DNA of 64,000 nt from a virus (lineage: Duplodnaviria > Caudoviricetes). The notes below the pieces were generated by a model, which saw nothing but the letters and a program-made list of their open reading frames with translations, had not been told where the DNA came from and did not search any database. The stretch is taken from the IMG/VR virus record IMGVR_UViG_3300048881_000780. The stretch is one strand, 5' to 3'. Below are positions 1-64,000 of the stretch, one piece after another (the stretch's first letter is position 1; every line of letters begins with the position of its first letter). A program made the position numbers and the translations under genes.

Positions 1-114
1 GGAGTACAGAAGAGAAAAAACAACTTGAGCCAACTCTTGCGTATATGAGATTTTTAGAATTAAAACTCTTTTTCCATAGTTATTAATGTTAATAATCGCA
101 TATTTATTTTTCAT
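1..114 (-). CDS. 5' part of a hypothetical protein (continues off the left edge)
   Basis: ATG at 114 opens a frame (MKNKYAII...) with no stop before the window edge; AAGGA RBS and a TG-T-TATAAT promoter upstream. Confidence 0.5.
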   Translation of the reverse strand, partial: MKNKYAIININNYGKRVLILKISYTQELAQVVFSLLYS

Positions 115-140
115 ACTTTCCTTATAAGACCTTTATATTA

Positions 141-155
141 TAACACGGTGTGTCA
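141..155. promoter_or_regulatory. TAACAC-N3-GTGTTA-family palindromic box overlapping an extended -10
   Basis: TAACAC-GGT-GTGTCA; the minus strand reads ...GTGTTATAAT upstream of the ORF starting at 114. Confidence 0.7.
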
Positions 156-191
156 CGGTACGGCCCTATAGGCGATAGGAATCTACGCAGT

Positions 192-1535
192 TCATAGTTT
201 TGGGTTTTTCTTCTCCCATTTTGATAAACTAGAGCTAACCTCTTGAATTTCTTCAATTAGTTTCTCTGTTAATCGTTCTTTTGACTTGAATATCTTCTTA
301 AATTCTTTCATTTTCTGAGTCTCGTCCTTAACTAATAGCTTCTTTTCCTTAACTTCTTTCTTTGTCATTCGGTAGATGGACATATCAGCTAAATAATCAC
401 AATTCACAAACTTCTTTTTCTTCAGATACTCGATATATGTCTTTCTATCTTCAAGCTTGTGGGCCTTCTCAAAGTGCTTCTCTTCGATGAATCTAATGAT
501 TTCATTACTTTTGTTAATTGCATTTATCGAAGACTCCAATAGTAGCTCATATCTTCTTTTAACTACCTTTAAGCGCTCTTTTGTGAATATTTCAATGTAC
601 TCTCGTGGATCATTAAAGGTCCACACGGTGTTATCTTTGATTAGATTGTAAACGGGAGAAAAACTAACTCTTGTTTCAAGTAGGGACTCAATGTCAGCTA
701 TTTTCAACTTCCTCCCCTTATGAAATACAAGCTCAATATTTACATTATTTTTCTTTGATCTATCTAGATAATCCTTAAGACTTCCCTCTTCTATGAGATC
801 TCCCAATTTTTGGTTAATTTTCTTCGCGTCCATTCCTCTTGGTAATTCAGTTATATAGAACTTTCCTTTTACTTCACTAACTCCTAATTCAGTGTAGAAT
901 TTGCCATCATCTTCCAAGACTTTCTTAGTATATCCTCTATACTTAGGGATAAGTTTAGATACCCTTTTTCCTTCTAAAAATTGAATCATGGCCTTACAGA
1001 TATCTTTATGATGAAACGAAGGAATATTTGTTCTATAGCCCGAAGCGATCCCCTCTGCTCCATTTAATAGAACAAGAGGTAATTTAGGGAGAAAGAATTC
1101 GGGTTCAAAGTCTTTTTCATCGTAACTAGGTATCATATTCACTTGGTTTAGATCACCTAATAGTAAAAGTTTAGCAATTTCTCCAAGTTTACATTCGATA
1201 TACCTCGCTGCCGCAGGAGTTGTCTCCATTCTCTCTCCGAAACTACCTTTTCCTTCAATTAATGGATAATTATTTGCAAATACATAATCTTGAGATAATT
1301 TTACAAGAGTAGATTCAACTGATGTATTTCCGTGAGGATGTAGAGTTAGTGTATAACCCGCGGCGGAAGCAACCTTTAACAGACCCTTTGATAAATTCTT
1401 GTATAAAATCCAAAGTGCTCTTCTTTGACCAGGTTTTAGACCATCTGTACTATATGGTATAGCTCGATCTTTAAGAGTATAAATTTGATACTCATAATAT
1501 TCTGATAAGATCACTTTCTTAGTTTCATTTGTCAT
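192..1535 (-). CDS. Type IIA DNA topoisomerase subunit A (GyrA/ParC/T4 gp52-like, no C-terminal domain)
   Basis: DGLKPGQRR, HPHG, PLIEGKGSFG, AAARY (catalytic Tyr), LPLVLLNGAEGIASG motifs; only 447 aa. Confidence 0.93.
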   Translation of the reverse strand: MTNETKKVILSEYYEYQIYTLKDRAIPYSTDGLKPGQRRALWILYKNLSKGLLKVASAAGYTLTLHPHGNTSVESTLVKLSQDYVFANNYPLIEGKGSFGERMETTPAAARYIECKLGEIAKLLLLGDLNQVNMIPSYDEKDFEPEFFLPKLPLVLLNGAEGIASGYRTNIPSFHHKDICKAMIQFLEGKRVSKLIPKYRGYTKKVLEDDGKFYTELGVSEVKGKFYITELPRGMDAKKINQKLGDLIEEGSLKDYLDRSKKNNVNIELVFHKGRKLKIADIESLLETRVSFSPVYNLIKDNTVWTFNDPREYIEIFTKERLKVVKRRYELLLESSINAINKSNEIIRFIEEKHFEKAHKLEDRKTYIEYLKKKKFVNCDYLADMSIYRMTKKEVKEKKLLVKDETQKMKEFKKIFKSKERLTEKLIEEIQEVSSSLSKWEKKNPKL

Positions 1536-1572: not shown

Positions 1573-3507
1573 TCATATTGAATCAACTCCATTTCTAAAG
1601 AGTTCTTTTCGAGGGCCTGAATCTTTAGAAAAGCAAATAGATAGTACTTTTTGGATTTCACTTTCATCATCGATTAGCAATGTTTGATACTCAGTCTCTT
1701 TCATTAAGTAATCCCAGGCTTCTCTACTCATTTCACCAAGACCTTTATTCCTATTTATACGTTTAATTTTTAAACTTTTTTTACTCTTTAATTTTTCCAA
1801 TTCACTATCAGTTGAGCAAAATAATAGCCCCTTATTTGTTTCTAATTCATAGAGTGGAGCTTTTGCTAACTTAACTTGTCCATTTTTAAAAAGCTCAGGC
1901 CAAAACTTAAAAAAGAAATTAATTAGGAGTGTATTTATATGGCCCCCATCAACATCCGAATCTGCAAGAAATACTATTTCTGGAAATCTCATCTCTTCTC
2001 TATCTGAAGACTTTGATAAATCTAATCCAATTGCAGATATAATATCTTGATACTCTTGGTTTTTAATTACGTCCTTAATGTCGCACGATAAAACATTTAA
2101 AGGTTTTCCCTTAAGGGGTATCCCACCTTGAGTTTCTTGATCACGAGAACTTCTAAGTCCGGCGATCGCAGAGTCTCCCTCGCATATAAATAGTTGACAC
2201 TTACTTCTATCTTTTCTTGCATTGGCATCTAATAATTTTGCTACTTTCTTTTTTCTAGATTTTTTTGCAAGCTTTGATGCCTCTTTTAAAAAATCCTGCT
2301 GTTTTCTCTTTTTAGCTCGCTCAATAACTTGTTCTAAAAAGTCCTTGTTTCTTCTGAAAAACAAAGACATTGATTCACCCATTGCACTCTCTATGGCCTT
2401 TTCTAGAAATGAGTGTTTCACCATCTTTCTCTTAGTTTGAGATTCAAATCTGGCGTTTGGAATAACTAGATTTATGACAAATACCATTCCCATACATATA
2501 TCTAAATCAGATATATCAATCTTTTGTCTCTTGGCCTCTTTCTTTAATTTATCTTTTATCGAATTAATAAAGAACCTTCTAACCTTATCGTGATGATAAC
2601 CACCATCAAAAGTTGGTGTTGAATTTACAAATGAAATAAACTCTTCTCTTTCAGCTGACTTTTTATTAAAAAAAGTAAGTATATCTAAATCAATTAACCC
2701 CTTTACAGGTTTCTTCTTAGAGTCTTTTGTTACATATGTATGTTGATATCTTTTAACTAGGTAATTACCTTTATGACTAGGAAGTAGAGGTATTAACTCT
2801 TCTAATCCCTTTTTAGTAAAAAATACTTCTTTATTAAACGTAAATTTAAGACCTGGGTTTATATATGATAAATCGATAATTCTTTTTCTTATATAGGATT
2901 CATCAAGGAGTGCGTCCCCATATACTTCAGGAGACAACTTAAGAGTTATTTTTACACCAGATTTTCCTGAAAATTTCTTGGTTCTTTTTTCTTTTATTTT
3001 ATTTGCACCATCAACAAATACAACAGTCTTCTCTTTTTTCTTTGATTTGTGTCTAACTGTTACCTCAAATAAATCAGAAGTTAAGCATGTGGCAGATGAA
3101 CCTACTCCATTTTGCCCAAGTGTTCTAGAGAGGTAGCCATTCTCATCTGATTCATTATCACCAAACTTTGACCCTACTCGGTACTCAGAGTAAACAGGTA
3201 CTATCTTACTAACATCGAAACCAATACCGTCATCTTCAATAGTAATAGTCTCTCTATCCTCACTTAGAGTTACTTTTATATGTTTAACATTACCTCTTAA
3301 GTATTCATCAATAGAGTTGTCTATAATCTCCTCGATGGCCTTATTTTTTGCCTGGTGAAATTGAAATTCAGAAAAAACTAATTCTTTATCTTTGTAAGTA
3401 TGTGTTTTTAGACCTTCTATACTATTTGAACCAAATGTTAATTCTACCCTATTTCTAGAATGCCAACGCTGTGACTTTTTCTCGATAATAGCTTCTTTTT
3501 TTGCCAT
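1573..3507 (-). CDS. Type IIA DNA topoisomerase subunit B (GyrB/ParE-like)
   Basis: GHKL motifs EIIDNSIDE, DDGIG, GQNGVGS; TOPRIM motifs EGDSA, PLKGKPLN, DSDVDG, KGLGEM. Confidence 0.94.
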   Translation of the reverse strand: MAKKEAIIEKKSQRWHSRNRVELTFGSNSIEGLKTHTYKDKELVFSEFQFHQAKNKAIEEIIDNSIDEYLRGNVKHIKVTLSEDRETITIEDDGIGFDVSKIVPVYSEYRVGSKFGDNESDENGYLSRTLGQNGVGSSATCLTSDLFEVTVRHKSKKKEKTVVFVDGANKIKEKRTKKFSGKSGVKITLKLSPEVYGDALLDESYIRKRIIDLSYINPGLKFTFNKEVFFTKKGLEELIPLLPSHKGNYLVKRYQHTYVTKDSKKKPVKGLIDLDILTFFNKKSAEREEFISFVNSTPTFDGGYHHDKVRRFFINSIKDKLKKEAKRQKIDISDLDICMGMVFVINLVIPNARFESQTKRKMVKHSFLEKAIESAMGESMSLFFRRNKDFLEQVIERAKKRKQQDFLKEASKLAKKSRKKKVAKLLDANARKDRSKCQLFICEGDSAIAGLRSSRDQETQGGIPLKGKPLNVLSCDIKDVIKNQEYQDIISAIGLDLSKSSDREEMRFPEIVFLADSDVDGGHINTLLINFFFKFWPELFKNGQVKLAKAPLYELETNKGLLFCSTDSELEKLKSKKSLKIKRINRNKGLGEMSREAWDYLMKETEYQTLLIDDESEIQKVLSICFSKDSGPRKELFRNGVDSI

Positions 3508-3530
3508 TTTTCATAATCCTTAATATATGT

Positions 3531-3545
3531 TAACACTTTGTGTTA
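3531..3545. promoter_or_regulatory. Perfect TAACAC-N3-GTGTTA box upstream of the topoisomerase operon
   Basis: TAACAC-TTT-GTGTTA, about 24 bp from the subunit B start; the minus strand gives TG-T-TAACAT followed by an AAGGA RBS. Confidence 0.75.
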
Positions 3546-3788
3546 TCGTATATTTTAACATGTGATTCACTAATTATTTAAAATTTGGTAAGACCCAACC
3601 TAAAAACAACATGTTAAGATTGAAGAATATTGAAATTATCGTGTACACAATAATTATAGTGCTATCTAAAAAAAATATTAAAATAACGAAAATACCTAAT
3701 GAGTAAACAGTGACTTATAGTTGCAGACAATATGAAAAACCTGTAATAACAGTAATGTAACCAGTTAACCTAAACTCAACCTTTTTAC

Positions 3789-3856: not shown

Positions 3857-5470
3857 ATGAGATTTATAGCAATACTAACATTACTACTTGTCGTATCATG
3901 TCAACCTAGCAAAAAGAAGAAGGTTGTTAAATCACCATTGGCCCCTCCAGTTAACAATGAGAACCCAAACACTCAGGGTGGGATATCAAGTCAAATTTAT
4001 GCACTAGAGGACCTGGTGAGTTTTAACAATAGCGCAACTCCAATCGAGGATTCTTACAACTCTTTTAATCTACCTCTTTCATCCTTCTCTGGAATAAATA
4101 TCGTAGGTAGAGATGTCGATAATTTAGCATTTTCAACTTACAATGAGTCAAATATCTCTAAGGCACATGCTTTAAAATATTTAATTACAAATGAAGTTGA
4201 TACAACTATTGAACACTTTCAAAATAACGAACTTACTTTAATCACTGAAACAAACGGTAGAGCTTATTACATCATTAAAGAAATTGACAATGAGATATTT
4301 ATTCATTCGGGTAAAAATAATAACAGCTCAAAGGTTTTATTGTCTGATAGTCATGTATTAGTTTACAACACTGTAGATTACACGCATGTTAACTACTATA
4401 AAGTTCCAAACACTAAAAGTGATTCTTTAAATATTTCTCTACTTACTCTTCCCTATACTTTTTCTAGATCTGGGGATTCTGTAACAGGTAACGTTCAAAT
4501 CGTTACAGATCAACACTCGGGTGGAGTGGCGATAAATTCTTCTAATGATTATTCTTTTAATTACTTTGATAAAGATACATCATCGTATATCCCACTTGAT
4601 TTTACTGGTGCCATGAAAACTGAAGTTCATAATCACCTAGTGACCAACTACGATATAATTTCGACTTATGCAGAAGGAACTACATTTATTTTAACACTAT
4701 CTCATCGCACTGATGGAGATATTATTGAATACGCCCTATATGGATACAAGAGTGGTGTTACTTGGACTTCTAAACAACTTAGACTTACAACTGAGGGTGA
4801 AGACGCTAGACCGTACGATATTATTAAATCAAACTATGGATTAGTTGAATATTTTTATGACAGCAATGAAGTAGGGAAATATCTACTAGATGATAAAATT
4901 TCTCCACAGTTTCAGTCATATATTACGACCTTTGGGAACAATTTAAACATAACAGATATTATCTTAGTTAAGAATAATCAAAATCTTTGTCTTGGTAAAT
5001 TAACAGGTGAGACTAGATGCTTTGGTCACAACAACCTATCTACTTCTCATATTAATGAAATATCACCCTTAAAGATGTTTGTGGGTGGAAGTAATTCTAT
5101 CTTTGCTCTATACGAGAATGGAAAAATTTATGCTATTGAAAAATACTCTCCAAACAGTGATGTTTTCTTAAGTGGATTTTCCACCAGTGAAGCCGAAAAA
5201 CAAATATCAGGCACAGTTAGAGAGATTGGCCTTGTAGAAGATTTAAGATCTAAGAGACTCACTCTATTTGCCATTCAAAATAACGGAGAAATCGTTATTA
5301 TCGGTAATAGAATTGGTCAAACTTTTGGATCAACTAGTTATGATAATCACAGATATCAACTAGAATACTTCTTTGTTGGATATAATTACATAGGTTTACA
5401 GGCCTCCAATGGTGATCCAAGTTTTATCACTCCTAAGGGGCAGAACTTTATCAATTCAAACGCCTTTTAA
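3857..5470 (+). CDS. Putative lipoprotein, beta-rich
   Basis: Signal peptide with lipobox (MRFIAILTLLLVVSC), low-complexity linker, N/S/T-rich extracellular composition; GAGG RBS. Confidence 0.75.
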   Translation: MRFIAILTLLLVVSCQPSKKKKVVKSPLAPPVNNENPNTQGGISSQIYALEDLVSFNNSATPIEDSYNSFNLPLSSFSGINIVGRDVDNLAFSTYNESNISKAHALKYLITNEVDTTIEHFQNNELTLITETNGRAYYIIKEIDNEIFIHSGKNNNSSKVLLSDSHVLVYNTVDYTHVNYYKVPNTKSDSLNISLLTLPYTFSRSGDSVTGNVQIVTDQHSGGVAINSSNDYSFNYFDKDTSSYIPLDFTGAMKTEVHNHLVTNYDIISTYAEGTTFILTLSHRTDGDIIEYALYGYKSGVTWTSKQLRLTTEGEDARPYDIIKSNYGLVEYFYDSNEVGKYLLDDKISPQFQSYITTFGNNLNITDIILVKNNQNLCLGKLTGETRCFGHNNLSTSHINEISPLKMFVGGSNSIFALYENGKIYAIEKYSPNSDVFLSGFSTSEAEKQISGTVREIGLVEDLRSKRLTLFAIQNNGEIVIIGNRIGQTFGSTSYDNHRYQLEYFFVGYNYIGLQASNGDPSFITPKGQNFINSNAF

Positions 5471-6427: not shown

Positions 6428-6781
6428 CTAGGTTGGTAGAATTCTAACTTTCCCATCTGATAAGTGAGCAACTTTACACGATGTCCAGGTTTCTTTTTTC
6501 TTATTTCTTGTTGTCCAGTCTGCGACGAGATATGGATCATAGAAAATCTCTACACTCCATTTATGATTACTATTTTCAAACAAAGAAACTAACTCTCCCT
6601 CAATAAATGCGTGTACATTTTTTTGCCTCTCTCTTAGTACTCTCTCCCTTCCCTTTTTACCTACAACTAATCTGCAATTGATAAGAGTTATAGCATTAGT
6701 GTAAGCGATTACCTTACCAGTCTTTTTATTTCTTACTGAAAAACAGCCTTTATGTAAGTTTTTATATACTTGGACAATCAT
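6428..6781 (-). CDS. Conserved phage-type hypothetical protein
   Basis: VYKNLHKGCFSVR...GRERVLRERQKNVHAFIEG...YDPY pattern; start reassigned to ATG 6781, which overlaps the dam stop (ATGA). Confidence 0.75.
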   Translation of the reverse strand: MIVQVYKNLHKGCFSVRNKKTGKVIAYTNAITLINCRLVVGKKGRERVLRERQKNVHAFIEGELVSLFENSNHKWSVEIFYDPYLVADWTTRNKKKETWTSCKVAHLSDGKVRILPT

Positions 6782-7533
6782 TTCTTCACCCACAAAACCT
6801 CTAATCTCTTTGAGTTTTGAGTATCGATTGTCTTATAAAGCTTTTTCCACCCTAGTTGATCGTAAATCTCATTATCATATCCAGATAATAGGCAATGGCC
6901 TTTAATCTTGCTTAAAACATTTACTAGTTCTTGATGATCAGTATTTGTTAATTCAAACTTGTATGATTTTTTTGATACCCTTAGATTATGTAGATATGGA
7001 GGATCAATATAGAAAGTCGTATGTGACTTATCATATCTTTGTATACAGTCCTTCCAATCAAGTCTCTCTATGATAACTCCTCTTAATCTCTCACTAAAGA
7101 ATTCTAAATATTCTAAATAATTCTTAAATCCTGTTGCGGGAGAGGAGTTTTGAGAAATCGAATTCCTAAATCCGGTGTTATTATTTATAGAATCACCAAT
7201 ACCCATAAATGATTTTATGATTGTTTTGGCCGCTCTCTCTACGGGACAAAATGAATATAATCTGGCCTCGTCGTATACCTCTCTTGAGTATGGGGTAAAT
7301 TGGAGATATCTCTTAAGTTCTTGATATCGATCTCTAACTACTTTAAAAACATTAACTATTTCACCGTCTATATCATTATAGACTTCATTTTTAACTCTAT
7401 CTTTAAATAATAGAATTGTTCCACCTCCCCCAAAAGGTTCTACATATGTCTTAGATGGAGGTAGATTAGCTAAAATCCATTTCCTTGATGTGAACTTACC
7501 GCCAAAATAATTTATAAGAGGTCTTTGCTTCAT
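6778..7533 (-). CDS. dam: DNA adenine N6-methyltransferase (Dam/D12 class)
   Basis: YFGGK, YVEPFGGGG (SAM binding), YNDID, DPPY catalytic motif; target sequence not determinable. Confidence 0.9.
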   Translation of the reverse strand: MKQRPLINYFGGKFTSRKWILANLPPSKTYVEPFGGGGTILLFKDRVKNEVYNDIDGEIVNVFKVVRDRYQELKRYLQFTPYSREVYDEARLYSFCPVERAAKTIIKSFMGIGDSINNNTGFRNSISQNSSPATGFKNYLEYLEFFSERLRGVIIERLDWKDCIQRYDKSHTTFYIDPPYLHNLRVSKKSYKFELTNTDHQELVNVLSKIKGHCLLSGYDNEIYDQLGWKKLYKTIDTQNSKRLEVLWVKK

Positions 7534-7567
7534 ACATCTATTTTAATATATACATCAGTGCATATCT

Positions 7568-7582
7568 TAACACCTCGTGTCT
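7568..7582. promoter_or_regulatory. Palindromic box between divergent dam and SNF2 genes
   Basis: TAACAC-CTC-GTGTCT in the 80-bp divergent gap. Confidence 0.65.
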
Positions 7583-7613
7583 ATATTACTACTATGTAGT
7601 ATATAATAGTTAT

Positions 7614-9713
7614 ATGAGTATTTTAGATATTGAATTTGGGCAAAATAAGACTACGATGTACGATGTTGTAAATGCATTAAGTACTTTTAATAATTACGAT
7701 CAGGATGAAAAAAGATGGCAAGAAATGCTAGAAATCCATTTTCAAAAAATTGGTCGAACTTATGAAAGAGAAGTTCATATATCTAAAGAGAGTATTATCG
7801 ACTTTAAAATGGACCGCATAGGCATTGAACTTAAGACAAAAGGCCGAGTTAGAGATGTATATCGTCAAATAAAGAGATACCTAGAAACCGATGAGATTGA
7901 TGAGATCGTATTACTTACAACAAAGAATTTTTCACTACCATCAAAAATAAATGGAAAAACTGTAAGAGTTATCAATAAAAGTTTCAATATCCTTAAAAAT
8001 CAAAAAAGTAAGAATAGAAATATAGAGAGAGACCCTGGTACTTATGGCACAATCGTTTACTCAAGTGAAATTAATTCTTGGAAACTAGATGTTGACGCAA
8101 ATGTCTCCATGAGACTTAAGAGAATTTTAGATTTCTTACCTAAGACATCGAGACCGCCATTTATTATTAAGAATACACCGGAAAGGTGCGCTGACTTAAA
8201 TTGGGTTATGACTAGATATCCTCTTACTATATCTAAAAAGGATCATAAGTTTCTAAACAAAAAAGAAAGTGAGTTTAAAGAGTTTATTTCTTCTTGTGAT
8301 GAAATACTTATGAATAAATCATACTCTATTGATGTTGATCTAACTGATACATATAAATTAAGAAGCTATCAATCTCAATATGTTGGATTAGCTGGAAAAG
8401 TTAAAAGAATCTTTAATGCCGATGACACTGGTCTTGGAAAGACTTTAGAGTGTCTTGCTCATATCGTAGACGTTGGCAAATTTCCAGTAGTCATATGTTC
8501 ACAAACAACTAATCAGATACAATGGTTTGAAGAAGCTTCAAAGGCAACTAATTTAAAAATTGCTTTTTTATCAAAGGGTAAACTTAAAGAATCTGACTTA
8601 GATGCAGATATCTATATAACTAGGTACTCACTACTTGCTAAACATATGGACTACTTTCTCGCTAAAGATATCGACTCTATTCACTTTGACGAAATTCAGG
8701 AACTTAGAAATTCTGGTAGTGATAAATACAATGCGGCCTATACATTATCTCAATTTTGTAACGGAGTAACTGGTTACTCAGCAACCCCGATCTACAATAG
8801 AGGTAGTGATGTTTTTAATATTTATACTATTATTGATAAATCAATTCTAGGGAGTTGGTCTGAATTTTCAAGAGATTGGTGTATTAACACATTTCAAGAC
8901 GATAAAGGTGATATTAAAGATCCTGTTGCACTAAGGTCATACCTTATTGAGATAAATAAAATGATCAGAAGAACAAGAGAAGATGTTCAATTAGAACTTC
9001 CACCTCTAGATATTACACCATACCTAATTGAGCACGATAAAAAAGAAATCGATCGATTTGAATCTCTACTAAAAGATCTAGCTATTAAAACTCTTGAAAG
9101 TAAGGATGAATTCGAAAGAGGTCGCTTATCTAACCAGTTAGATATGAAAGCTCGTGAGATGACTGGTATTTCAAAAGCCCGCACGGCGGCGGCTTTCATT
9201 AGGGATTTAATTGACCAAGGTAGACGGCCTGTTGTTGTTGGTTGGCACCGAGAAGTATGGAATATACTGAGTGAGGAGTTATCTGATAAAAACCTTGTTT
9301 TCATAACTGGAAATGAAAATCCAAAACAAAAAGATCTAAATAAGAAGAAGTTTATAAATGATGAAGCTGACGCTCTTTGTGTTTCAATCAGAAGTTGCGT
9401 TGGTATTGATGGTCTTCAGGAAGCCTCTAGCGATATTGTATTCATTGAATTTGATTGGTCGCCAGCTGTCCATAAACAAGTAATAGAGAGACTTTGGCGA
9501 TTTAAACAGCGTAATACTACAAGTGTTTACTACTTAATAGCTGAAGCTGGTACAGATCCAGCTATGATTGAAAAACATGGTGTCAAGAAACAACAATTAG
9601 AAGGCTTTGTAAATGGTGAACAATTGGATGAAAATGCATTTGGTGGATCAAAGAGCAATAGACCTTCTGGAATTGAATTTGCTAACTCTATTTTAAAAGG
9701 GAAGAAGAAATAG
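7614..9713 (+). CDS. SNF2-family helicase/ATPase with an N-terminal PD-(D/E)XK-like nuclease domain
   Basis: DDTGLGKT (Walker A), FDEIQ (Walker B), SATPIYN, GIDGLQ, WSPAVHKQVIERLWR; N-terminal EREV...IDF...GIELK...QIKRY. Confidence 0.85.
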   Translation: MSILDIEFGQNKTTMYDVVNALSTFNNYDQDEKRWQEMLEIHFQKIGRTYEREVHISKESIIDFKMDRIGIELKTKGRVRDVYRQIKRYLETDEIDEIVLLTTKNFSLPSKINGKTVRVINKSFNILKNQKSKNRNIERDPGTYGTIVYSSEINSWKLDVDANVSMRLKRILDFLPKTSRPPFIIKNTPERCADLNWVMTRYPLTISKKDHKFLNKKESEFKEFISSCDEILMNKSYSIDVDLTDTYKLRSYQSQYVGLAGKVKRIFNADDTGLGKTLECLAHIVDVGKFPVVICSQTTNQIQWFEEASKATNLKIAFLSKGKLKESDLDADIYITRYSLLAKHMDYFLAKDIDSIHFDEIQELRNSGSDKYNAAYTLSQFCNGVTGYSATPIYNRGSDVFNIYTIIDKSILGSWSEFSRDWCINTFQDDKGDIKDPVALRSYLIEINKMIRRTREDVQLELPPLDITPYLIEHDKKEIDRFESLLKDLAIKTLESKDEFERGRLSNQLDMKAREMTGISKARTAAAFIRDLIDQGRRPVVVGWHREVWNILSEELSDKNLVFITGNENPKQKDLNKKKFINDEADALCVSIRSCVGIDGLQEASSDIVFIEFDWSPAVHKQVIERLWRFKQRNTTSVYYLIAEAGTDPAMIEKHGVKKQQLEGFVNGEQLDENAFGGSKSNRPSGIEFANSILKGKKK

Positions 9714-55473: not shown

Positions 55474-55518
55474 ATCTCTATTATATTCTTTTTTTAGGCA
55501 CTATTATTGTTCCAAAAC

Positions 55519-55548
55519 TTGACACGCTACGTTAACCATGGTTATAAT
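55519..55548 (+). promoter_or_regulatory. Consensus sigma70 promoter with overlapping box, HNH gene (leaderless)
   Basis: TTGACA-18bp-TATAAT, ATG 6 nt later; TGACAC-GCT-ACGTTA at 55520-55534. Confidence 0.72.
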
Positions 55549-55554
55549 TGAAGC

Positions 55555-56277: not shown

Positions 56278-56304
56278 AGAGAGACAGAATTTTAAACAAG
56301 GTGT

Positions 56305-56724
56305 GTGTGTATGTGTACGGCTACGTCAATGAAAAGTTATCTGGAAGATAACTGGTCTAAAGTTCCTTATCCAAAATTAGTAAAAACTGTAAAGTCTGCG
56401 CTTAAGAGAGAGAAAAACTTGAGACGAAATACTCGAGTATGGAGAGAGATCCTCTCTTTATTTGAACCAGGTGAATTCATTAGCTCAAAAGCTGAAAGGG
56501 AGTTTTATGACTCACTAGATGAATCTTTTATGGCATTTCGAGGTGATTCTAGAAAGTGTGATACTCCTAGAAAGGTTCTTTGGCAACAGGATGAATCTGA
56601 GGCGAAAGCAAGAAATTGTGACGTTAAAGATGGTACAACTTTTACAGTCTTTTATAGAAAGATTTTTAAAGAAAAAATTCTTGGCGTGTTTCCAGATAGT
56701 GGAGAAATTATCTATATAGACTAA
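56305..56724 (+). CDS. Hypothetical protein (start uncertain), weak ADP-ribosyltransferase-like pattern
   Basis: FRG...W...A...I.K..IL..F....EII pattern. Confidence 0.55.
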   Translation: MCMCTATSMKSYLEDNWSKVPYPKLVKTVKSALKREKNLRRNTRVWREILSLFEPGEFISSKAEREFYDSLDESFMAFRGDSRKCDTPRKVLWQQDESEAKARNCDVKDGTTFTVFYRKIFKEKILGVFPDSGEIIYID

Positions 56725-56726
56725 TT

Positions 56727-56936
56727 CTAATCAGGTCTTCTAATCTGGTTGATATCATAATTAGTTTCAGTAAAGTAATCGTTACCGTTTCTATATTTTG
56801 GTGTCCCTTCACAGAAAACCTTTTTTGTCTCAGGGTCTTGAGCACAAATTTTACCAGTCTTAGAATATCCTCTAAATTCACTACTGGCACAAGATGTCAG
56901 TAGTGTTAACAGAACTAATATATTTAGATAATACAT
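56727..56936 (-). CDS. Small lipoprotein at the end of the T4SS operon
   Basis: Lipobox LTSC, 69 aa, TAATG coupling to the upstream gene. Confidence 0.7.
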   Translation of the reverse strand: MYYLNILVLLTLLTSCASSEFRGYSKTGKICAQDPETKKVFCEGTPKYRNGNDYFTETNYDINQIRRPD

Positions 56937-57676
56937 TACTTTTCCTCTTTCACTCTAAGATCATCAACTTTTTGATTAACATCTTTTTTCTCTTGAACTT
57001 GAACCTTAGTATCGTAGAGTTCATCACTTACAAGCAAGCTCATCACTTCATTTGCAACCTTAGCAAGCTCTTCTTTTGTCATTTCCTTAGAGGCATTAAG
57101 TTTTGACTCTTTGACCATTTTTTGAACAGTAGATTCCAATTCTTTTTTAAACTTATCAAAATCAGACTTTTTAACGATAGTCTTCATTCTTCTCTTTACG
57201 TAAGAGCGCATCTTTTTAGCGACTTCCTTTCTCTCATCTTTATCTCTATCAATTGAGGCCATAATCTCTTGCTTCACTCTCATGAAGATCTCGTTATTTC
57301 CACTCATAATTTGTTTTTCAACTTCCTTGGCCATCAGATCTTTAAACACCACTTGCTCTTGGTACATCTGTCCCTGAAGCTGAACAATTGCCTCTGAAGA
57401 CTCTTTAATAAAAGATGCTAACATCTTTTCCATCTCCTCTTCTCTATCGTGAGCGTTCTTATTTGAAAGATAATCTAGTCCCTCATATAATCCTGCGATT
57501 GCACAAACACCAGCAGAAGCAATAGCTTTATTTTTAGTCTCTTCAATTGTCATAAACACGGTCGCACTACCAACGGCACAAACGGCTCCCCATTTTGTCC
57601 ACTTAGATTCGTACCACTCTTTAGCAACTAAAGACTGTGATAAAACTAAAGTCAAAATCAATATAATATTTTTCAT
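56936..57676 (-). CDS. Exported protein with glycine-zipper-like hairpin and long coiled coil
   Basis: Signal peptide; GAVCAVG...AGVCAIAG; AGGAG RBS. Confidence 0.75.
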   Translation of the reverse strand: MKNIILILTLVLSQSLVAKEWYESKWTKWGAVCAVGSATVFMTIEETKNKAIASAGVCAIAGLYEGLDYLSNKNAHDREEEMEKMLASFIKESSEAIVQLQGQMYQEQVVFKDLMAKEVEKQIMSGNNEIFMRVKQEIMASIDRDKDERKEVAKKMRSYVKRRMKTIVKKSDFDKFKKELESTVQKMVKESKLNASKEMTKEELAKVANEVMSLLVSDELYDTKVQVQEKKDVNQKVDDLRVKEEK

Positions 57677-57685
57677 AGCTAACTC

Positions 57686-58264
57686 CTACTTAATATTCTT
57701 TCCATACAAGAAACGACACAGACTCATATTGGCCTTAACTCTTTTTCTTGTTTCTGATTCATATTTTTTGTCACACTTATAATCTTTCTTTATTTGATTA
57801 ATTTCTTTTAAATAATCATTTCTCTTGTTAACATCTTCATTGGCAAAATCGGCCATCAATCGCCTGAGAACTTCTCCCACTTTTTCAGCACACTTCATTT
57901 TCTCACTATGAATATTTAAATACTCACCATCTACTTCACAAGCTAAACTCGTATTACTATAGTGAACACGTACTTTTACTCCATCAAAATCCACAAAAAA
58001 GTAATACATTAAATCTTCGTCAAAATCAGGATTCAACTCCTTCATCTCCTTAACAAACTCTGTATATTTCTTACGTGAAATTTCATCGACCATTCTATTT
58101 TCTTTATAGTGCTCCATCATTGAGTTCTTAGAAACTCTATCAAATTTCATTATCTTATAATCAGAAAGAACTTTATCAATAGCCGACTCCAATCTTGTCC
58201 TTGGTGGTTGCATTGCTAGAATATTAATTGATAATACAAATATTAGAAAAATCTTAGTTGCCAC
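57686..58264 (-). CDS. Secreted hypothetical protein
   Basis: Start reassigned to GTG 58264 (AAGGGAG RBS), which exposes signal peptide MATKIFLIFVLSINILA. Confidence 0.7.
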   Translation of the reverse strand: MATKIFLIFVLSINILAMQPPRTRLESAIDKVLSDYKIMKFDRVSKNSMMEHYKENRMVDEISRKKYTEFVKEMKELNPDFDEDLMYYFFVDFDGVKVRVHYSNTSLACEVDGEYLNIHSEKMKCAEKVGEVLRRLMADFANEDVNKRNDYLKEINQIKKDYKCDKKYESETRKRVKANMSLCRFLYGKNIK

Positions 58265-58706
58265 GAAGAAAACTCCCTTGTTCTGTTCTACCTTCCAGAT
58301 AGAATTCATAACTTCCCTCTTCAATAGACCCGTCACTTCTTCTTGTACCTGGTACATAAACGGGTCTAACCTTTACTGGGTAATCATCTGGAACATCACT
58401 AGACATTGACATTACCATTTCGTTAATTATCTTTTCCTTTTCCTTGAAAATCTTCTTTTCTTTATTACCGTATTTTTCATCGTAGTGATCAAAGATAAAG
58501 TACCCTGCACCTCCTAGAGCAACACCTACAAGTAAGCTTGTTTTGATATCTTGGCCAGATAAGTACATAGCACTGGTACCACCAACGAATCCAACAGTTG
58601 TCTCGAGCATAGGACCTTGAACCCATCTATCAAGTAGAGTTCTCTCGCTTGCTAAAGAAGAAAACGTAATTAAGAATGCTGTAAGTAATACTAAAATAGT
58701 TTTCAT
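58254..58706 (-). CDS. Exported glycine-zipper-like protein, C-terminus weakly TraV-like
   Basis: Signal peptide; VGFVGG...VGVALGGAG; VYVPG....DG.IEEGSY. Confidence 0.7.
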   Translation of the reverse strand: MKTILVLLTAFLITFSSLASERTLLDRWVQGPMLETTVGFVGGTSAMYLSGQDIKTSLLVGVALGGAGYFIFDHYDEKYGNKEKKIFKEKEKIINEMVMSMSSDVPDDYPVKVRPVYVPGTRRSDGSIEEGSYEFYLEGRTEQGSFLRGN

Positions 58707-58714
58707 CTCTTATC

Positions 58715-59137
58715 CTATAGATCATTTCCAGAGTAATTAAATTTATACCTAGTCTTTCCACCTCTAAGTACACCATTAGTCTCTTGGATAGTTCCTCTAA
58801 TGACTTCAATATTTACTGGTGCCTTGCCATTTTTCATGTACTGGGCCTGCAATTCTTTTAATGCTTCTATTTGCGCCGTTTGTTCACGATGCTTGGCTTC
58901 ATAATTATAACCAATTCTATTCTTATACATTTTATTAACTAAATAACCTGTGATCGTTCCTGCCAGACAACCTGTTCCAAGTCCCATCATCTTGTCATCT
59001 TCCGAACTTAGATAGTACATGGTTCCACCAACAGCAACACATCCAATAAGAGGTTCAGAAAACTCAATTTCACTTAACCAATTGGCATAGATGCTTTGGT
59101 TTATTAGTAGTAAAAGTATTAATAATAATTTCTTCAT
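58715..59137 (-). CDS. Exported glycine-zipper-like protein
   Basis: Signal peptide; IGCVAVGG...GTGCLAGTITG. Confidence 0.7.
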   Translation of the reverse strand: MKKLLLILLLLINQSIYANWLSEIEFSEPLIGCVAVGGTMYYLSSEDDKMMGLGTGCLAGTITGYLVNKMYKNRIGYNYEAKHREQTAQIEALKELQAQYMKNGKAPVNIEVIRGTIQETNGVLRGGKTRYKFNYSGNDL

Positions 59138-59145
59138 AACTAATC

Positions 59146-59898
59146 CTAAAATACCAAGAGTGGATTTCTATGCATATTTGTATAGTAATCTTCAATATAT
59201 TTAGATGTAATGGCCTCTTTTTTAAATGAAATTACATAAAGTCCATTTTTGTTTCTATGCGCTTTACCATCAGCAGTCCTAAGAGGAAAACCTTGTCCCA
59301 CAAGGAGGCTAATTCTAACCGCACCAGCAGTTCTATCAAAAACCTCATCTCTCTTTTTCTTGCTTCGATCAAATAACTGAATTCTCTCTCCAATAATGGA
59401 TACATAGAAATTTCCATTTGGAGTTTTTCTAATATCTTCAATGGCGGCAATTCCAAAATACCAAGAACAAGCACATCTCTCGAGCTCCTCTGCTCTCTTT
59501 CCAGAGAACGCGAACTCTTCTTCAACCTTTAATCTCTCTGGACCAATTGAATAGAATATGGCCTTCTTAAGAGAGTGGTTGATTCCATCAAGCTTATATC
59601 GATTTCCATTAATATCTTCAGAGAAATTAATAAGACTCTCATTCATTCTTAGTTGAGTATACTTAAGAGAGAATTGATACAGATTTGCTAAATCATTTTG
59701 CATAGATGTACTCTGCATTCCCATGACCATAGGAAATGTATAAAAATTCTTCGAAGGATCAAGAACAACTGTCTCTTCTCTCGACTTCCAAATTAGTACA
59801 CTTAAGCTTAGAAATATTAAGCAAAGAATAGATACAAACCCTAGAGACAGAGCGATCTTTTCATATTTTGAAATTTTGTTTATATCAATTATCTTCAT
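59146..59898 (-). CDS. Bitopic membrane protein, possible VirB8/TraE-like T4SS subunit
   Basis: Single N-terminal TM, helix-then-strand periplasmic domain ending N..GLYVISF as in VirB8-family proteins; T4SS context. Confidence 0.55.
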   Translation of the reverse strand: MKIIDINKISKYEKIALSLGFVSILCLIFLSLSVLIWKSREETVVLDPSKNFYTFPMVMGMQSTSMQNDLANLYQFSLKYTQLRMNESLINFSEDINGNRYKLDGINHSLKKAIFYSIGPERLKVEEEFAFSGKRAEELERCACSWYFGIAAIEDIRKTPNGNFYVSIIGERIQLFDRSKKKRDEVFDRTAGAVRISLLVGQGFPLRTADGKAHRNKNGLYVISFKKEAITSKYIEDYYTNMHRNPLLVF

Positions 59899-59912
59899 GA
59901 ATCTATTATAAA

Positions 59913-60815
59913 TTATTTATCAGTGGTTCTGATGCGATTTAACAATTGTCGATACTCATTATCTATGGCCTTAAAGCTTGCGAGATCTCCTTTTCCAGAG
60001 AATTCTTTTTGAATATCTTTTTTAGTAATATCAAATACATAGCGAAGGATTACATAGCGATAACACTCCGGAGAAATATCATCCATGTAGTCATTTAAAA
60101 TATGGATTAGTTTGGTATCTTTAACTACCTTAGTAAAATCAATCTCTTCACCTCTTGATATCTCCAGGTGATTCAATTCTAATTTATCCATCAACTCCTT
60201 AAAAGAAGTGAGATAATCCCTCTCAATGCCTCCTGCTGAGTTAACTAGTTGATGAATGGAATTAACTTTATCAATAGCATCGATATAATCTCGATATAAA
60301 GATTTCTCATCTTCAGTTAATTCTTCATTGATTTTTATCTTATCGAAAACTTTATTTTCTTTTAGCTTTTTTTGAATAATTAAAATTTGGCGCTCTAAAT
60401 TTCCCTTGTTAGTTGTAATATAGCGAGATCTCTTTTCATCAAGGATATGATTGGCCAGAAGTTTTTGAGCAAAACCTGTAAAGAAGTCATCATATGAAAT
60501 ACTCTCGACCTTATATAAGGACTTATCAAATTTATCTAATACTTTATTAAATAACTCCCATGCGTAGCCCAAGTGAGGGCCTTCAAACTGTCCTTTAGTT
60601 AAATCCCAGTTATTTTCATATGGAGCACTCTTACAGATCAATCGATTGGCATCTGAACTCATTTTAAAGCAAAATCTTTTAAAGAAAAAAGAAAAGTGCT
60701 TATTAAAAAAATGGTCCCTCTCTTTTTTATTAAGAGGACTTTTAGGAGGTGTCGCAGTCTTATATATTTTTGGACTGTGATCTTTTCCCTCTTTAATTGA
60801 AAACAAGTCTTCCAT
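59913..60815 (-). CDS. Divergent sigma-70-family RNA polymerase sigma factor (FliA/WhiG-like)
   Basis: Region 2-like KVLDKFD...FTGFA...HILDEKRS; region 4-like ISPECYRYVILRYVFDITKKDI. Confidence 0.6.
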   Translation of the reverse strand: MEDLFSIKEGKDHSPKIYKTATPPKSPLNKKERDHFFNKHFSFFFKRFCFKMSSDANRLICKSAPYENNWDLTKGQFEGPHLGYAWELFNKVLDKFDKSLYKVESISYDDFFTGFAQKLLANHILDEKRSRYITTNKGNLERQILIIQKKLKENKVFDKIKINEELTEDEKSLYRDYIDAIDKVNSIHQLVNSAGGIERDYLTSFKELMDKLELNHLEISRGEEIDFTKVVKDTKLIHILNDYMDDISPECYRYVILRYVFDITKKDIQKEFSGKGDLASFKAIDNEYRQLLNRIRTTDK

Positions 60816-60822
60816 AATGATC

Positions 60823-63171
60823 CTAGTTTGAATAAATCACAATCATCTTTTTCTTATTTGCATAGAACACTTCAGAAGAAGAACCAATATCTTTAACTAG
60901 AAAATCTGAAACCGTCTGAGTTGTCGCTTGCCCAGCAGATACAAGTCCACCAGTAATCTCATTGGCAACTGTATCCTCTCCATTTTCATCACTTGGAGCA
61001 AGAACACCAATTGATTTAATTAAAGTTTGTACAATCTCTGAAGCGAAGACCTCTCCAATCTTAGATAATCTATTACCCCAAGCTTGACCTCTTAGTTCTC
61101 CAGTAAAGTTAACTGTATGAGTCTTTCCGCCTATTCTTAGAGTATTAAAATTAATAGTAGCTACTTTAGTATCTAGAGAGAAACTTCCTGTTTTACCAAT
61201 TAAAATACTCCCCTCAGGGATAACGATTTCACCCGTAGTTGGATGACGTATATCACGAGTGATTAAGGCCTGAGATCTCTTGGCCTTTACATTATCTGAG
61301 ATATATGTCTCCGTAACCATAACCGCCTGAAGTTCTTCACCTGGTGGAAGTATAGATTTCTTTCTAGGATCTTTAGAGTATACTGACAGTTTTGACAGAT
61401 CACCTCTAAGTTCTCCGTCTTTGTTAATAGAAGAAGGGTCTACACTAGCAAACTCATCTCTAATAGAGTTATTGTCACCATCTATATCGTCATTAAGTAA
61501 GTCTTTTAACTCATTAGTACTCATATCATTTAAAGTTTTACCATAAACAACCTTTTGAGCTCTCTCGTTAAATCCTTTATCTTTTTGAATCTTATTAATT
61601 AATTTCTTTTTAAGTAAATTACCTGAACTACTTAAAGATTTTTTATTTCTAATGAAGTATCTATTCTTAATTAGATCCTTGTTAATTAAAATGTCATCGC
61701 ATTTAACAAGTTTAATATCACTATCGCTTAAGGCGTCACCGTAAACCTTAGAAATAGATTTTTGAGAAGAATATAAATCCTTCTTAATCTTCTTAGCGTC
61801 AATTGAAAAATCTCTCTCTAGCTTCTTAAGTAATAATGCCTTCGACCTAATTTTTTCTCTAATGGCCTCACAAGTTTTGTGAAGTTTGAATTCATTTGGA
61901 GATAGAACATCTCCGGCCTTAAGTTTATCTATAATCTTTTCATATTTCTCACCAGAGCAGTTTTCCTTTAAAAACTGTCTGAGCTTTTGGATATCCGAAA
62001 AGTTATCTAGTAAATTATCTGCTAGATCTACAATATTAGAATCTTTATTACTTGCAAATAATGTTGAACCAAATAAGTCCTTGGCCCTATCTTTAAGATC
62101 TCCATCTAGAGAGTCAAATAGTCCCGCCAAAAGTCCAGAGTCTCTAAGTTTCTTAAGAAGAGCATCCCTTTGTTTTTCAGATAGATTATCTAATAAACCT
62201 TGATCAAATAACTCCTTCATCGCATCTTCATCAATTGAACCGGAATCTATACCCTGATTAATTAAATCTAATAAATTATTCTTATCTAAATCCTTTAAAT
62301 TATCAGAAATATCTTTAATACTTTGTGGACTTAGAGTATTTCCTGAGTTTAAAAATTCAGAAAGTGCTTTTGAAACCTCATCATTATCTAATTTTTTAAG
62401 CGCGTCTCCAATTAGAGGAATAGGTAGTCCATCAGGTCTCTCTCCCTCTCCTTTTAACCAAGAAAGTAAATCGTCCTTTTGTTTCTCGTCAAGGGCCATG
62501 ATCTCAGCAAGATTTCCGATTCTCTCACCATCTAGTAGCTTATTGGCCAAATACTCCTCTAAGCTTCCTTCTTTAATATCACCGCTGGCAACCTTTTTGA
62601 GTAAATCGATCTCCGCGTCGGATAGACCAAGCTCTTTGGCCTTTTTTAACATTTCAATTGCTTTTAATTGAGAATCCGATAAACCACCAGGGTTTTCATC
62701 TAGACATTGTTTATAAGTTTGCTCTTCTTCTTTGGTTAACTCTTTACCGGAAATTACTTTATCAAATAAATCCTGACAAATATCTGGATCTATATCTAAA
62801 TCGTTAGTCGCTGCAATTTGATTATTTTGTGATCTACGATTTAATTCATCTTTGATTTTTTTAATTTGTTCTTTTTGTCGCTTTACTAAATCAGTATCAG
62901 TATCCAGCTTATCTTGCTCTCTTTCTGTGTCATTAAATTCTTTCTTAGTCGCATCAAATGTATTGATATCATCTTTCGTTGTAACTAAAGACATAATCAA
63001 TACGGCCAGAATCCCACTCACAACCAGCGTGATACCAATAGGTTTCATTTTAGAAGGAGTAAACATCTTTCCATTTGAAACTTCGTCTCTTTTATCTAAT
63101 GTTTTATTTTTTTTCTTATCGACTCTATCTTTTATCCAAAGATAAGCGTCTCTTATTTTATTTTTAATCAT
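60823..63171 (-). CDS. VirB10/TrbI/TraB-like T4SS core protein
   Basis: N-terminal TM, long helical linker, C-terminal LPPGEELQAVM.TE...SD...A.ITRDI....G.IVIPEGSILIG beta-barrel signature. Confidence 0.75.
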   Translation of the reverse strand: MIKNKIRDAYLWIKDRVDKKKNKTLDKRDEVSNGKMFTPSKMKPIGITLVVSGILAVLIMSLVTTKDDINTFDATKKEFNDTEREQDKLDTDTDLVKRQKEQIKKIKDELNRRSQNNQIAATNDLDIDPDICQDLFDKVISGKELTKEEEQTYKQCLDENPGGLSDSQLKAIEMLKKAKELGLSDAEIDLLKKVASGDIKEGSLEEYLANKLLDGERIGNLAEIMALDEKQKDDLLSWLKGEGERPDGLPIPLIGDALKKLDNDEVSKALSEFLNSGNTLSPQSIKDISDNLKDLDKNNLLDLINQGIDSGSIDEDAMKELFDQGLLDNLSEKQRDALLKKLRDSGLLAGLFDSLDGDLKDRAKDLFGSTLFASNKDSNIVDLADNLLDNFSDIQKLRQFLKENCSGEKYEKIIDKLKAGDVLSPNEFKLHKTCEAIREKIRSKALLLKKLERDFSIDAKKIKKDLYSSQKSISKVYGDALSDSDIKLVKCDDILINKDLIKNRYFIRNKKSLSSSGNLLKKKLINKIQKDKGFNERAQKVVYGKTLNDMSTNELKDLLNDDIDGDNNSIRDEFASVDPSSINKDGELRGDLSKLSVYSKDPRKKSILPPGEELQAVMVTETYISDNVKAKRSQALITRDIRHPTTGEIVIPEGSILIGKTGSFSLDTKVATINFNTLRIGGKTHTVNFTGELRGQAWGNRLSKIGEVFASEIVQTLIKSIGVLAPSDENGEDTVANEITGGLVSAGQATTQTVSDFLVKDIGSSSEVFYANKKKMIVIYSN

Positions 63172-64000
63172 CTATAACTCCACGCCCATCTTCTTAAATT
63201 TCTTGTAACCCTCTCTAAGATTAATCAAAGTCTTTGAGTAACTCTTATGGTCATGATCAATCATATATAAATAAAAGAATCCTCTCTCTTTTATATATTT
63301 CTTTGAGACAAATAATTTAAAGTCCATGGCCCAAGTTGGCATACCTTTTTGTTTAGTTTCGTATTGAGTAACATAAGGAAGAACTCTGTACTGAATTGGC
63401 AATAAATTAAACTCGAGGGAATCAAATGCTTTAAACTCAATCTTTTTTAGATTTTTAATTTTGACATGCTCAGGATTAATATTTACAGAAATAGAAAGAG
63501 AGATGAAATCTTCTTCACTACTTGCGGCTAAAGCATCATAGTTGACTTGATAATACTCGCCCGTTCTTTCGTAGTTATAGGTATTTTCAATAATAAAATT
63601 TCTTGGGTGAAGCATTACTGAATTCTTACTATTGGTTACCTTCTTTCCAATTTCAGCTGAAATAGGATAATCATCAGCACCTCTACAGTCAGTACCAATG
63701 ATCTCAAAGTTATAAGAGTCTCTCGTGGCATTATCTAACTCTACTCTAATTCCAGATAGAACTTTAATTCGTTTCTTTGATAATTTAACAGGTTCCTTTA
63801 GCTGGACTTTTACGGCCCTTTTAGACTTCGTCATGCTAACATCAATAAGGTCATTATATTTACTTACATCGTGGACATCCTCAATAAATGTCTCATCAAA
63901 TTCAATTGTTAAATACCTATTAAAACAAACAAAAACTTCCGCAGTATCTCCAGGGCCCATTAATTCTTTTACAATTCTTGGGTCGTTTCTTCTTACAGAA
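63172..64000 (-). CDS. Probable VirB9/TraK-like T4SS protein (5' end outside the window)
   Basis: Frame stays open to 64000; beta-rich; abuts the VirB10-like gene; functional call is mainly positional. Confidence 0.5.
   Translation of the reverse strand, partial: SVRRNDPRIVKELMGPGDTAEVFVCFNRYLTIEFDETFIEDVHDVSKYNDLIDVSMTKSKRAVKVQLKEPVKLSKKRIKVLSGIRVELDNATRDSYNFEIIGTDCRGADDYPISAEIGKKVTNSKNSVMLHPRNFIIENTYNYERTGEYYQVNYDALAASSEEDFISLSISVNINPEHVKIKNLKKIEFKAFDSLEFNLLPIQYRVLPYVTQYETKQKGMPTWAMDFKLFVSKKYIKERGFFYLYMIDHDHKSYSKTLINLREGYKKFKKMGVEL

Follow-up and report, generated by a model that had tools for sequence, protein, structure and literature searches.

We analysed a 64,000-nt stretch of DNA (called the window throughout), which comprises bases 32001-96000 of a 361,129-bp hydrothermal-vent contig listed in IMG/VR as virus record IMGVR_UViG_3300048881_000780. 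The same stretch is present in a public run labelled hydrothermal vent metagenome. Its GC content is even, at 33% overall and 32-35% along the length. The window carries genes for a replicative DNA polymerase, helicase, primase and exonuclease, a set of recombination and repair genes, and genes of a type IV secretion system (T4SS), and is probably part of a giant plasmid-like element. Families were assigned with Pfam for open reading frames (ORFs) of at least 100 amino acids (aa), except 58254-58706 and 63172-63960, which were compared with NCBIfam only; PHROG searches covered 30 unannotated ORFs. Coordinates are those of the window.

Four genes of the replication fork were recognised:

16267-21738, minus strand: DnaE, C-family replicative polymerase, 1823 aa (Pfam PHP, DNA_pol3_alpha, finger and HHH_6)
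22356-24443, plus strand: DnaB-like replicative helicase, 695 aa (Pfam DnaB_C, E 1.4e-9; phrog_19, E 5.5e-23)
24436-26031, plus strand: DnaG-type primase with zinc finger and Toprim core; 8-nt overlap with the helicase gene
43918-44877, minus strand: DnaQ-like exonuclease (Pfam RNase_T)

The DnaE protein has the complete domain set of a C-family polymerase, namely PHP, a palm with the catalytic aspartates, fingers and HhH. Large insertions and a C-terminal extension of ~570 aa bring it to 1823 aa, and alignments with ordinary DnaEs cover only ~28% of it. Its close relatives form a clade of ~18 proteins of ~1800 aa that are 30-36% identical end to end, all from metagenome contigs, which reach sizes of up to 277 kb. 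Across the family alignment (A1) the PDIDYD motif and a third Asp are invariant. So is an H-H-D-H-E-H-C-D-H series of nine candidate ligands in the PHP domain, which we take to be a full metal-ligand set. PF01336, an OB-fold family that most ordinary DnaEs contain, was not detected in the clade. The C-terminal extension is conserved, with GTVFRPEKKKF as the consensus of its final conserved block. No member of the 1800-aa family was found in GTDB representative genomes, IMG/VR, phage records or plasmid records; the matches returned from GTDB representatives were ordinary Peregrinibacteria DnaEs with the same motif patterns, and were rejected.

Three independent metagenome contigs with members of this family (L014-L016) keep the gene order UvsW-like helicase, primase, helicase and then a DnaE gene read in the opposite direction, so that the DnaB-like helicase adjoins DnaE in these contigs as it does in the window. 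Their UvsW-like proteins are 30-32% identical to that of the window (listed below), and the flanks near DnaE are made up of DNA-metabolism genes alone, those for a single-stranded DNA-binding protein (SSB), NAD ligase, dNMP kinase, thymidylate synthase, dCMP deaminase, C5 methylases and a sigma factor. A 103-aa protein of no known family (48189-48500) is 44% identical to L016:22228-22623, and its gene is the sole non-replisome gene common to the window and the metagenome loci of the DnaE family.

The primase had no Pfam match. Its sequence has a zinc finger of the form CPxC...CxxC and the Toprim motif EGxxDA, and a four-sequence profile (A4) found DnaG catalytic cores in PDB (E 2e-12).

At the other end of the window lies a string of secretion-related genes:

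53063-59137, minus strand: exported proteins of 281, 517, 246, 223, 150 and 140 aa with signal-peptide-like N-termini
55555-56277, plus strand: HNH gene interrupting the exported-protein string
56305-56724, plus strand: second gene interrupting the string
59146-59898, minus strand: VirB8-like bitopic protein, 250 aa, transmembrane (TM) segment at ~residue 12 (a lead from ESM Atlas)
60823-63171, minus strand: VirB10/TrbI-like T4SS core protein, 782 aa (TrbI by way of its homologs and its modelled fold)
63172-64000, minus strand: upstream partner gene of virB10-like, cut by the window edge; no family matched

Direct comparison of the VirB10-like protein with Pfam gave TrbI at 22 bits, under the cut-off of 35. 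Word-index homolog searches returned the query alone. An exhaustive HMMER search recovered 49 distant homologs of 640-840 aa; of 37 that were aligned, 34 match TrbI (best E 7e-18) and seven match TraM, the Bacteroidota equivalent of VirB10. The single sequence matched nothing in PDB, and a profile (A2) gave weak matches to TraF and ComB10 at E ~0.04 among coiled-coil noise. AlphaFold modelling of residues 560-782 with the homolog alignment produced a beta-barrel with pLDDT >90 and a two-helix antenna, whose long helices span residues 143-163 and 177-204 of the model. Foldseek gave this model 25 matches in PDB at E <=0.001, starting at 4e-8 with probability 1.00, and the matches listed are all of VirB10 type (X. 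citri VirB10, TrwE, DotG, TraF, CagY, chains of the F-plasmid core complex and ComB10). The predicted topology comprises an N-terminal cytoplasmic tail, one TM segment at ~residue 41, a long coiled middle and the C-terminal barrel. Homology and model together identify the predicted product of 60823-63171 as a VirB10-type outer-membrane core subunit.

Two genes downstream of virB10-like, the product of 59146-59898 is probably VirB8-like, which we treat as a lead. ESM Atlas gives it a feature score of 0.94 against a cluster in which PF04335 (VirB8) makes up 87%, and TM-scores of ~0.5 against models of VirB8/TrbF, DotI and TraE; its membrane topology is also in keeping with VirB8. A two-sequence profile found no match in PDB, and the single-sequence AlphaFold model (pLDDT 41) was unusable. 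The original prediction, made from the sequence alone, had named VirB10-like genes in the plural; the one at 60823-63171 is borne out by Pfam matches of its homologs and by its fold, and the second is better read as the VirB8-like gene. Between the two lies an ORF of 300 aa (59913-60815) that matched no family and has no Pfam sigma-70 domain. The exported proteins of 53063-59137 matched no Pfam or PHROG family. The HNH-motif protein of 55555-56277, encoded on the strand opposite to the T4SS string, has two predicted TM segments. No VirB4-family ATPase was found by Pfam among the window ORFs.

Both gene sets have counterparts on one replicon from a cultured host, the plasmid pBdHM1 of Bdellovibrio sp. 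HM001 (AP029175.1), a circular record of 160,999 bp with 49% GC. Its annotation is almost entirely 'hypothetical protein'. Among the 72,556 plasmids of PLSDB, the VirB10 domain and the primase each match pBdHM1 only; a search of 50,697 phage records gave no match to the primase or to the VirB10-like protein of pBdHM1. Twelve window ORFs have BLAST homologs in pBdHM1, at 20-33% identity. The replication genes among them are DnaE, the DnaB-like helicase, primase, RecA (33% to recA_2) and Dam. The VirB10-like gene and its upstream partner are present in the same order as in the window: the homolog of 63172-64000 (E 8e-9) encodes a 490-aa signal-peptide protein and lies directly 5' of the VirB10-like gene, which itself matches TrbI at 49 bits. 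The homolog of the VirB8-like gene (E 8e-10) lies directly upstream of a gene for a VirB4-type ATPase, with a 1-nt overlap; this 966-aa ATPase matches the VirB4-type model P-loop_TraG at 33 bits, above its cut-off. The 517-aa exported protein (53920-55473) matches two adjacent pBdHM1 paralogs (E 2e-12 and 2e-7), and the small exported protein of 58715-59137 matches pBdHM1 117395-117889. Weak matches were obtained for the Clp-type ATPase (clpX_2, E 2.5e-5) and for a surface protein with immunoglobulin (Ig)-like domains (E 2e-7).

pBdHM1 also has genes for a dUTPase, SSB, an RNase_T exonuclease, dNMP kinase, a Clp ATPase and ParA-type ATPases. When its 44 largest unannotated ORFs were compared with Pfam, the ParA-type ATPases were recognised along with nucleases and methylases. 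The plasmid interleaves genes of replication with those of secretion: virB10-like is followed directly by the DnaB-like helicase gene (L129:34537-38433), and the dUTPase, VirB8-like and VirB4-like genes come after the helicase in the same direction.

The DnaE of pBdHM1 is found in two genes ~90 kb apart, a PHP-side piece by Dam (L131:37684-39042) and a palm-fingers piece (L129:44517-46877), and both are closest to the window DnaE clade. Should both pieces prove functional, pBdHM1 would have a natural case of a split C-family polymerase. In a FastTree phylogeny of the palm-fingers region (699 columns; limited sampling and a midpoint root only), the pBdHM1 piece groups with the 1800-aa family and the intermediate protein P0019 in a single clade with SH-like support of 0.996, separate from the sampled bacterial, candidate phyla radiation (CPR) and IMG/VR DnaEs.

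The remaining DNA-metabolism genes of the window are these:

192-1535, minus strand: topoisomerase II small subunit, 447 aa (Pfam DNA_topoisoIV, E 1.4e-84, residues 24-430)
1573-3507, minus strand: topoisomerase II large subunit, 644 aa, T4 gp39+60-like (Pfam HATPase_c, DNA_gyraseB and Toprim)
6428-6793, minus strand: mycobacteriophage L5 gp82-like gene, 121 aa (Pfam Phage_L5_gp82, PF25735, E 8e-30), overlapping the Dam gene end
6778-7533, minus strand: Dam methyltransferase (Pfam MethyltransfD12, E 2.7e-20)
7614-9713, plus strand: SNF2-family helicase/translocase (Pfam SNF2-rel_dom, E 9e-17)
15653-16216, minus strand: dUTPase (Pfam dUTPase, E 1.2e-26)
34679-37468, minus strand: two-ring Clp/Hsp100-type AAA+ ATPase, 929 aa (Pfam AAA_2, AAA, AAA_lid_9 and ClpB_D2-small)
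38185-39924, minus strand: UvsW-like superfamily 2 (SF2) helicase (Pfam ResIII and Helicase_C)
39934-41214, minus strand: RecA recombinase (Pfam RecA, E 4e-48)
42633-43001, plus strand: DksA/TraR-type zinc-finger regulator (Pfam zf-dskA_traR, E 5e-11)
43143-43916, minus strand: 257-aa protein of no known family, third gene after MutS and the DnaQ-like exonuclease
44953-47346, minus strand: MutS (Pfam MutS_I, MutS_III, MutS_IV and MutS_V)

The topoisomerase small subunit has no GyrA C-terminal domain by Pfam, an architecture like that of T4 gp52. The best phage matches of the large subunit are to a 636-kb uncultured phage and to T4-like proteins named 'topoisomerase II large subunit', at ~30% identity over 97-99% of the length, and 1,653 phage records align with 80% or more of it. 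The claim of a T4-like topoisomerase, made beforehand, agrees exactly with this two-subunit domain layout and with best phage matches that are T4-type large subunits; more widely, every class of replication and repair gene that had been predicted is present at the level of Pfam, PDB or fold. The top PDB match of the UvsW-like helicase is T4 UvsW (2oca), weak at E 1e-4. MutS retains the GDFYE mismatch motif and Walker A, and is best matched in PDB by E. coli MutS (E 6e-47). MutS, the DnaQ-like exonuclease and the 257-aa gene share one strand with gaps of 1-75 nt (43143-47346), an apparent operon. The N-terminal 350 aa of the Clp/Hsp100-type ATPase have no recognised identity.

A 17-bp palindrome, TTAACAC-N3-GTGTTAA, occurs eight times in the window when up to two mismatches are allowed, against 0.33 sites expected. 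The sites are all intergenic, in short gaps, and seven of the eight stand upstream of replication or repair genes or operons:

3530-3546: upstream of the topoisomerase II genes
7567-7583: before Dam/SNF2
22168-22184 and 22285-22301: a pair in the gap between DnaE and helicase
37538-37554: perfect palindrome, before the Clp/Hsp100 ATPase gene
41236-41252: before RecA
47384-47400: before the MutS operon
48530-48546: before the small gene at 48556

This distribution fits a putative operator through which a single element-wide repressor would act on the DNA-metabolism genes.

Among the replication genes are five predicted lipoproteins with a signal peptide ending in Cys (3857-5470, 9786-11024, 11367-14837, 29556-34106 and 50387-52447), including a 1156-aa protein with Ig-like domains, a 1516-aa protein with Big_9/cadherin repeats and a 686-aa GDSL esterase. 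They look like surface or adhesin cargo. Downstream of the helicase and primase genes, 26618-29541 (plus strand) encodes six small membrane proteins of 143-178 aa with one or two TM segments. They matched no family and include two paralog pairs, starting at 26618 and 28619 (35% identical) and at 27046 and 27591 (36%).

The absence of ribosomal, metabolic and virion genes, as first described, holds for the window. It contains no tRNA gene and no match to any Rfam family, and no ribosomal or central-metabolic Pfam family was found. Virion Pfam families were likewise not found, and the PHROG scan returned no structural family; as a sequence-only result from 64 of 361 kb this is a weak negative.

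We read the window, with a probability of about 0.7, as part of a giant plasmid-like element, extrachromosomal and low in GC, from a diderm host (probably one of the Bdellovibrionota); it would represent an essentially undescribed lineage with a private DnaE clade and a divergent T4SS. A diderm host is suggested by the lipobox lipoproteins and by the outer-membrane antenna of VirB10. Hints to its identity come from Bdellovibrio, the host of pBdHM1, and from the DnaE family member P0009, which comes from a metagenome-assembled genome labelled 'Oligoflexia bacterium'. The plasmid reading draws its support from pBdHM1, which shares twelve genes with the window, among them those for the VirB10-like protein, the primase and a DnaE from this clade, and which also encodes ParA and a VirB4-type ATPase. 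The original prediction had proposed a little-described class of very large plasmid-like element that joins phage-style DNA metabolism to a T4SS, and this proposal gains support: the same combination exists in circular pBdHM1 and probably on a third molecule, an NCBI contig of 199,351 bp on which the best DnaE relative (P0002) and a member of the VirB10 family (P0138) are both recorded. None of the ten best VirB10-family matches lay on a contig equal in size to a DnaE-family contig; P0138 was the one such case, in a second batch. A literature search found no description of such an element or of strain HM001.

Several points weigh against this reading. The results cover 64 of 361 kb, together with the relatives. 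The probable sharing of one NCBI contig by P0002 and P0138 is judged from the equal size of 199,351 bp, not from sequence. The plasmid status of pBdHM1 is the depositors' label alone; similarity to it is low (20-33%), it has under half the size of the element, and its GC content is 49% as against 33% in the window. It differs as well in its split DnaE, which lacks the 1800-aa format, and in having no BLAST homolog of the topoisomerase II, MutS, UvsW-like and SNF2 genes. T4-type topoisomerase II, UvsW-like helicase, dUTPase and the L5 gp82-like gene are a typical large-phage kit, and capsid genes of jumbo phages often escape Pfam and PHROG searches.

Two further points concern transfer and replication. 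No relaxase or coupling-protein Pfam family was found in the window. Among the 44 largest unannotated pBdHM1 ORFs none was found either, nor any capsid, terminase or portal family, and six-frame searches of pBdHM1 with PF02534, PF03135, PF03237, PF05065 and PF03432 were all negative, with working positive controls. The direct search for a relaxase and coupling protein in pBdHM1 used two of these models only (PF02534 and PF03432), so that divergent versions are possible. PLSDB types pBdHM1 as non-mobilizable. Because neither protein was found, the 'conjugation-type' character first ascribed to the T4SS is not established and self-transfer is unproven; we give self-transfer and protein delivery roughly even odds as its function. 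'Self-sufficient replisome', the other phrase of that description, overstates what the window holds, since Pfam revealed no sliding clamp, clamp loader, SSB or ligase there. As SSB and NAD ligase genes lie beside DnaE in the relatives, and an SSB gene on pBdHM1, these may be located elsewhere on the element.

The large-phage kit could also mean that the window belongs to a jumbo phage or phage-plasmid whose virion module lies in the other 297 kb or is too divergent to be recognised, the VirB10-like and VirB8-like proteins then being cargo or an unusual entry or exit device. The split T4-type topoisomerase II with its best match in a 636-kb phage, UvsW as top PDB match, and the L5 gp82-like, dUTPase, Dam and HNH genes all speak for this. 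So do the flanks of the relatives, where genes for dNMP kinase, thymidylate synthase, dCMP deaminase, NAD ligase and SSB recall jumbo phages, and the pairing of DnaE with RecA on many IMG/VR contigs. We nevertheless consider it unlikely. Sixty-four kilobases passed without a structural PHROG or Pfam match; the DnaE family was not found in IMG/VR, nor the primase and VirB10 family in the 50,697 phage records; pBdHM1 showed no terminase, capsid or portal Pfam family in either its 44 largest unannotated ORFs or the controlled six-frame searches; and ParA on pBdHM1 and the several apparent lipoprotein adhesins in the window are further points against a phage.

Still less probable, and by our estimate quite improbable, is that the window comes from a chromid or secondary chromosome, or from a cellular genome that is strongly reduced, on which these would be the organism's only dnaE, recA and mutS. 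The contig is large, and MutS, RecA, DksA and Clp/Hsp100 proteins are usually chromosomal. The 64 kb, however, hold no tRNA, rRNA or other Rfam family and no ribosomal or metabolic Pfam family, the DnaE clade stands apart from sampled bacterial DnaEs, and the topoisomerase is of phage type rather than a gyrase. In addition, pBdHM1 has genes named recA_2, dut_2 and clpX_2, suffixes from which we infer that the first copies are on the Bdellovibrio chromosome.

That the assembly, being metagenomic, joined phage-like and T4SS genes of two elements, gene sets usually found in different kinds of element, is very improbable: a 145,297-bp Logan contig that another assembler built from run X1, probably out of the reads behind the source assembly, has an even depth of ~51x and shows 0 differences from the window over 44001-64000, a stretch that includes MutS and VirB10; the even GC and the recurring operator run across the whole window, and the same mixture exists in closed pBdHM1, with the helicase gene directly after virB10-like. 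A second vent study (run X2) yielded small, low-depth, near-identical fragments of 44001-64000, with identities of 99% or more in 34 of 36; this element, or a strain very close to it, is thus present in more than one data set.

Returning to the plasmid-like element, its DNA metabolism resembles that of T4-like and huge phages in the two-subunit topoisomerase II without a GyrA C-terminal domain (gp39/gp52), in a helicase gene adjoining the primase gene (gp41/gp61), in a RecA-family recombinase beside a UvsW-like helicase (UvsX/UvsW), in dUTPase and Dam, and presumably in overall autonomy from the host. It differs from T4-like phages in that the polymerase is a C-family DnaE, not B-family gp43, and the helicase, primase and recombinase are of the bacterial types DnaB, DnaG and RecA rather than gp41, gp61 and UvsX. 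It also has MutS and T4SS genes, and the searches of the window revealed no gene for a virion, tail or terminase protein.

With the VirB/Trb and Bacteroidota Tra T4SSs of conjugative plasmids and integrative and conjugative elements (ICEs), the window shares the VirB10/TrbI barrel with its antenna, the VirB10 topology and, probably, a VirB8-like neighbour. Likeness to the Bacteroidota Tra type extends to the VirB4-type ATPase of pBdHM1, which fits the TraG P-loop model, and to the members of the VirB10 family that match TraM. Unlike its canonical counterparts, the VirB10-like protein has 782 aa and a long coiled middle and scores under the Pfam cut-off, and the gene order is non-canonical, interleaved with replication genes. 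At the search thresholds applied, neither the window nor pBdHM1 showed a relaxase, coupling protein, VirB11, VirB6 or VirB9 family.

Other giant extrachromosomal elements, for which metagenomes are the sole source, have been described as Borgs (PMC12660748), Inocles (PMC12340149) and Enterobacteriaceae megaplasmids (10.1101/2025.09.30.679422). They too are reported to be hundreds of kb long, to consist largely of unknown genes and to resist classification as plasmid or virus; they have other hosts, and the likeness drawn here is one of description.

In the mechanism that we propose, the element encodes the catalytic core of a replisome, with a DnaE of intact motif and full PHP ligand set and a separate DnaQ-like exonuclease. 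Helicase and primase, whose genes overlap, may be co-translated, and the T4-type topoisomerase II could unlink daughter molecules. Fork assembly would then depend little on the polymerase, helicase and primase of the host; clamp, clamp loader, SSB and ligase may be borrowed from it unless they are encoded elsewhere on the element. RecA, the UvsW-like and SNF2 helicases, MutS, dUTPase and Dam would supply recombination and repair. Through the eight palindromes upstream of operons, one repressor encoded by the element may switch the DNA-metabolism genes together. An envelope-spanning T4SS composed of VirB10, the VirB8-like protein and exported partners would move the element or proteins to other cells, and so may fill the role that the capsid has for a jumbo phage.

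A more specific form of this picture, to which we give slightly less than an even chance, is that of an old, undescribed giant-plasmid lineage in Bdellovibrionota-like diderms, with autonomy of jumbo-phage grade (a private DnaE clade and its own helicase-primase, topoisomerase II, recombination and mismatch repair), one element-wide operator and a divergent T4SS without recognisable relaxase or coupling protein, by which it would spread or act, in effect a capsid-less counterpart of the jumbo phages with pBdHM1 as its culturable representative.

Plasmids are the textbook users of the host replisome, and possession of a polymerase, helicase, primase and topoisomerase of one's own is a hallmark of large viruses. 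If the plasmid reading is true, a conserved plasmid lineage with its own polymerase clade, and with a secretion system in place of the capsid, would blur the divide between plasmid and virus and add a new deep branch both of C-family polymerases and of VirB10-type proteins. Such elements could show how very large mobile DNA stays stable by means of its own MutS, RecA and Dam. Because a relative resides in a cultured Bdellovibrio, these ideas can be tested at the bench: whether the element needs its own DnaE, whether it is transferred, and what cargo the T4SS may carry in a predatory bacterium.

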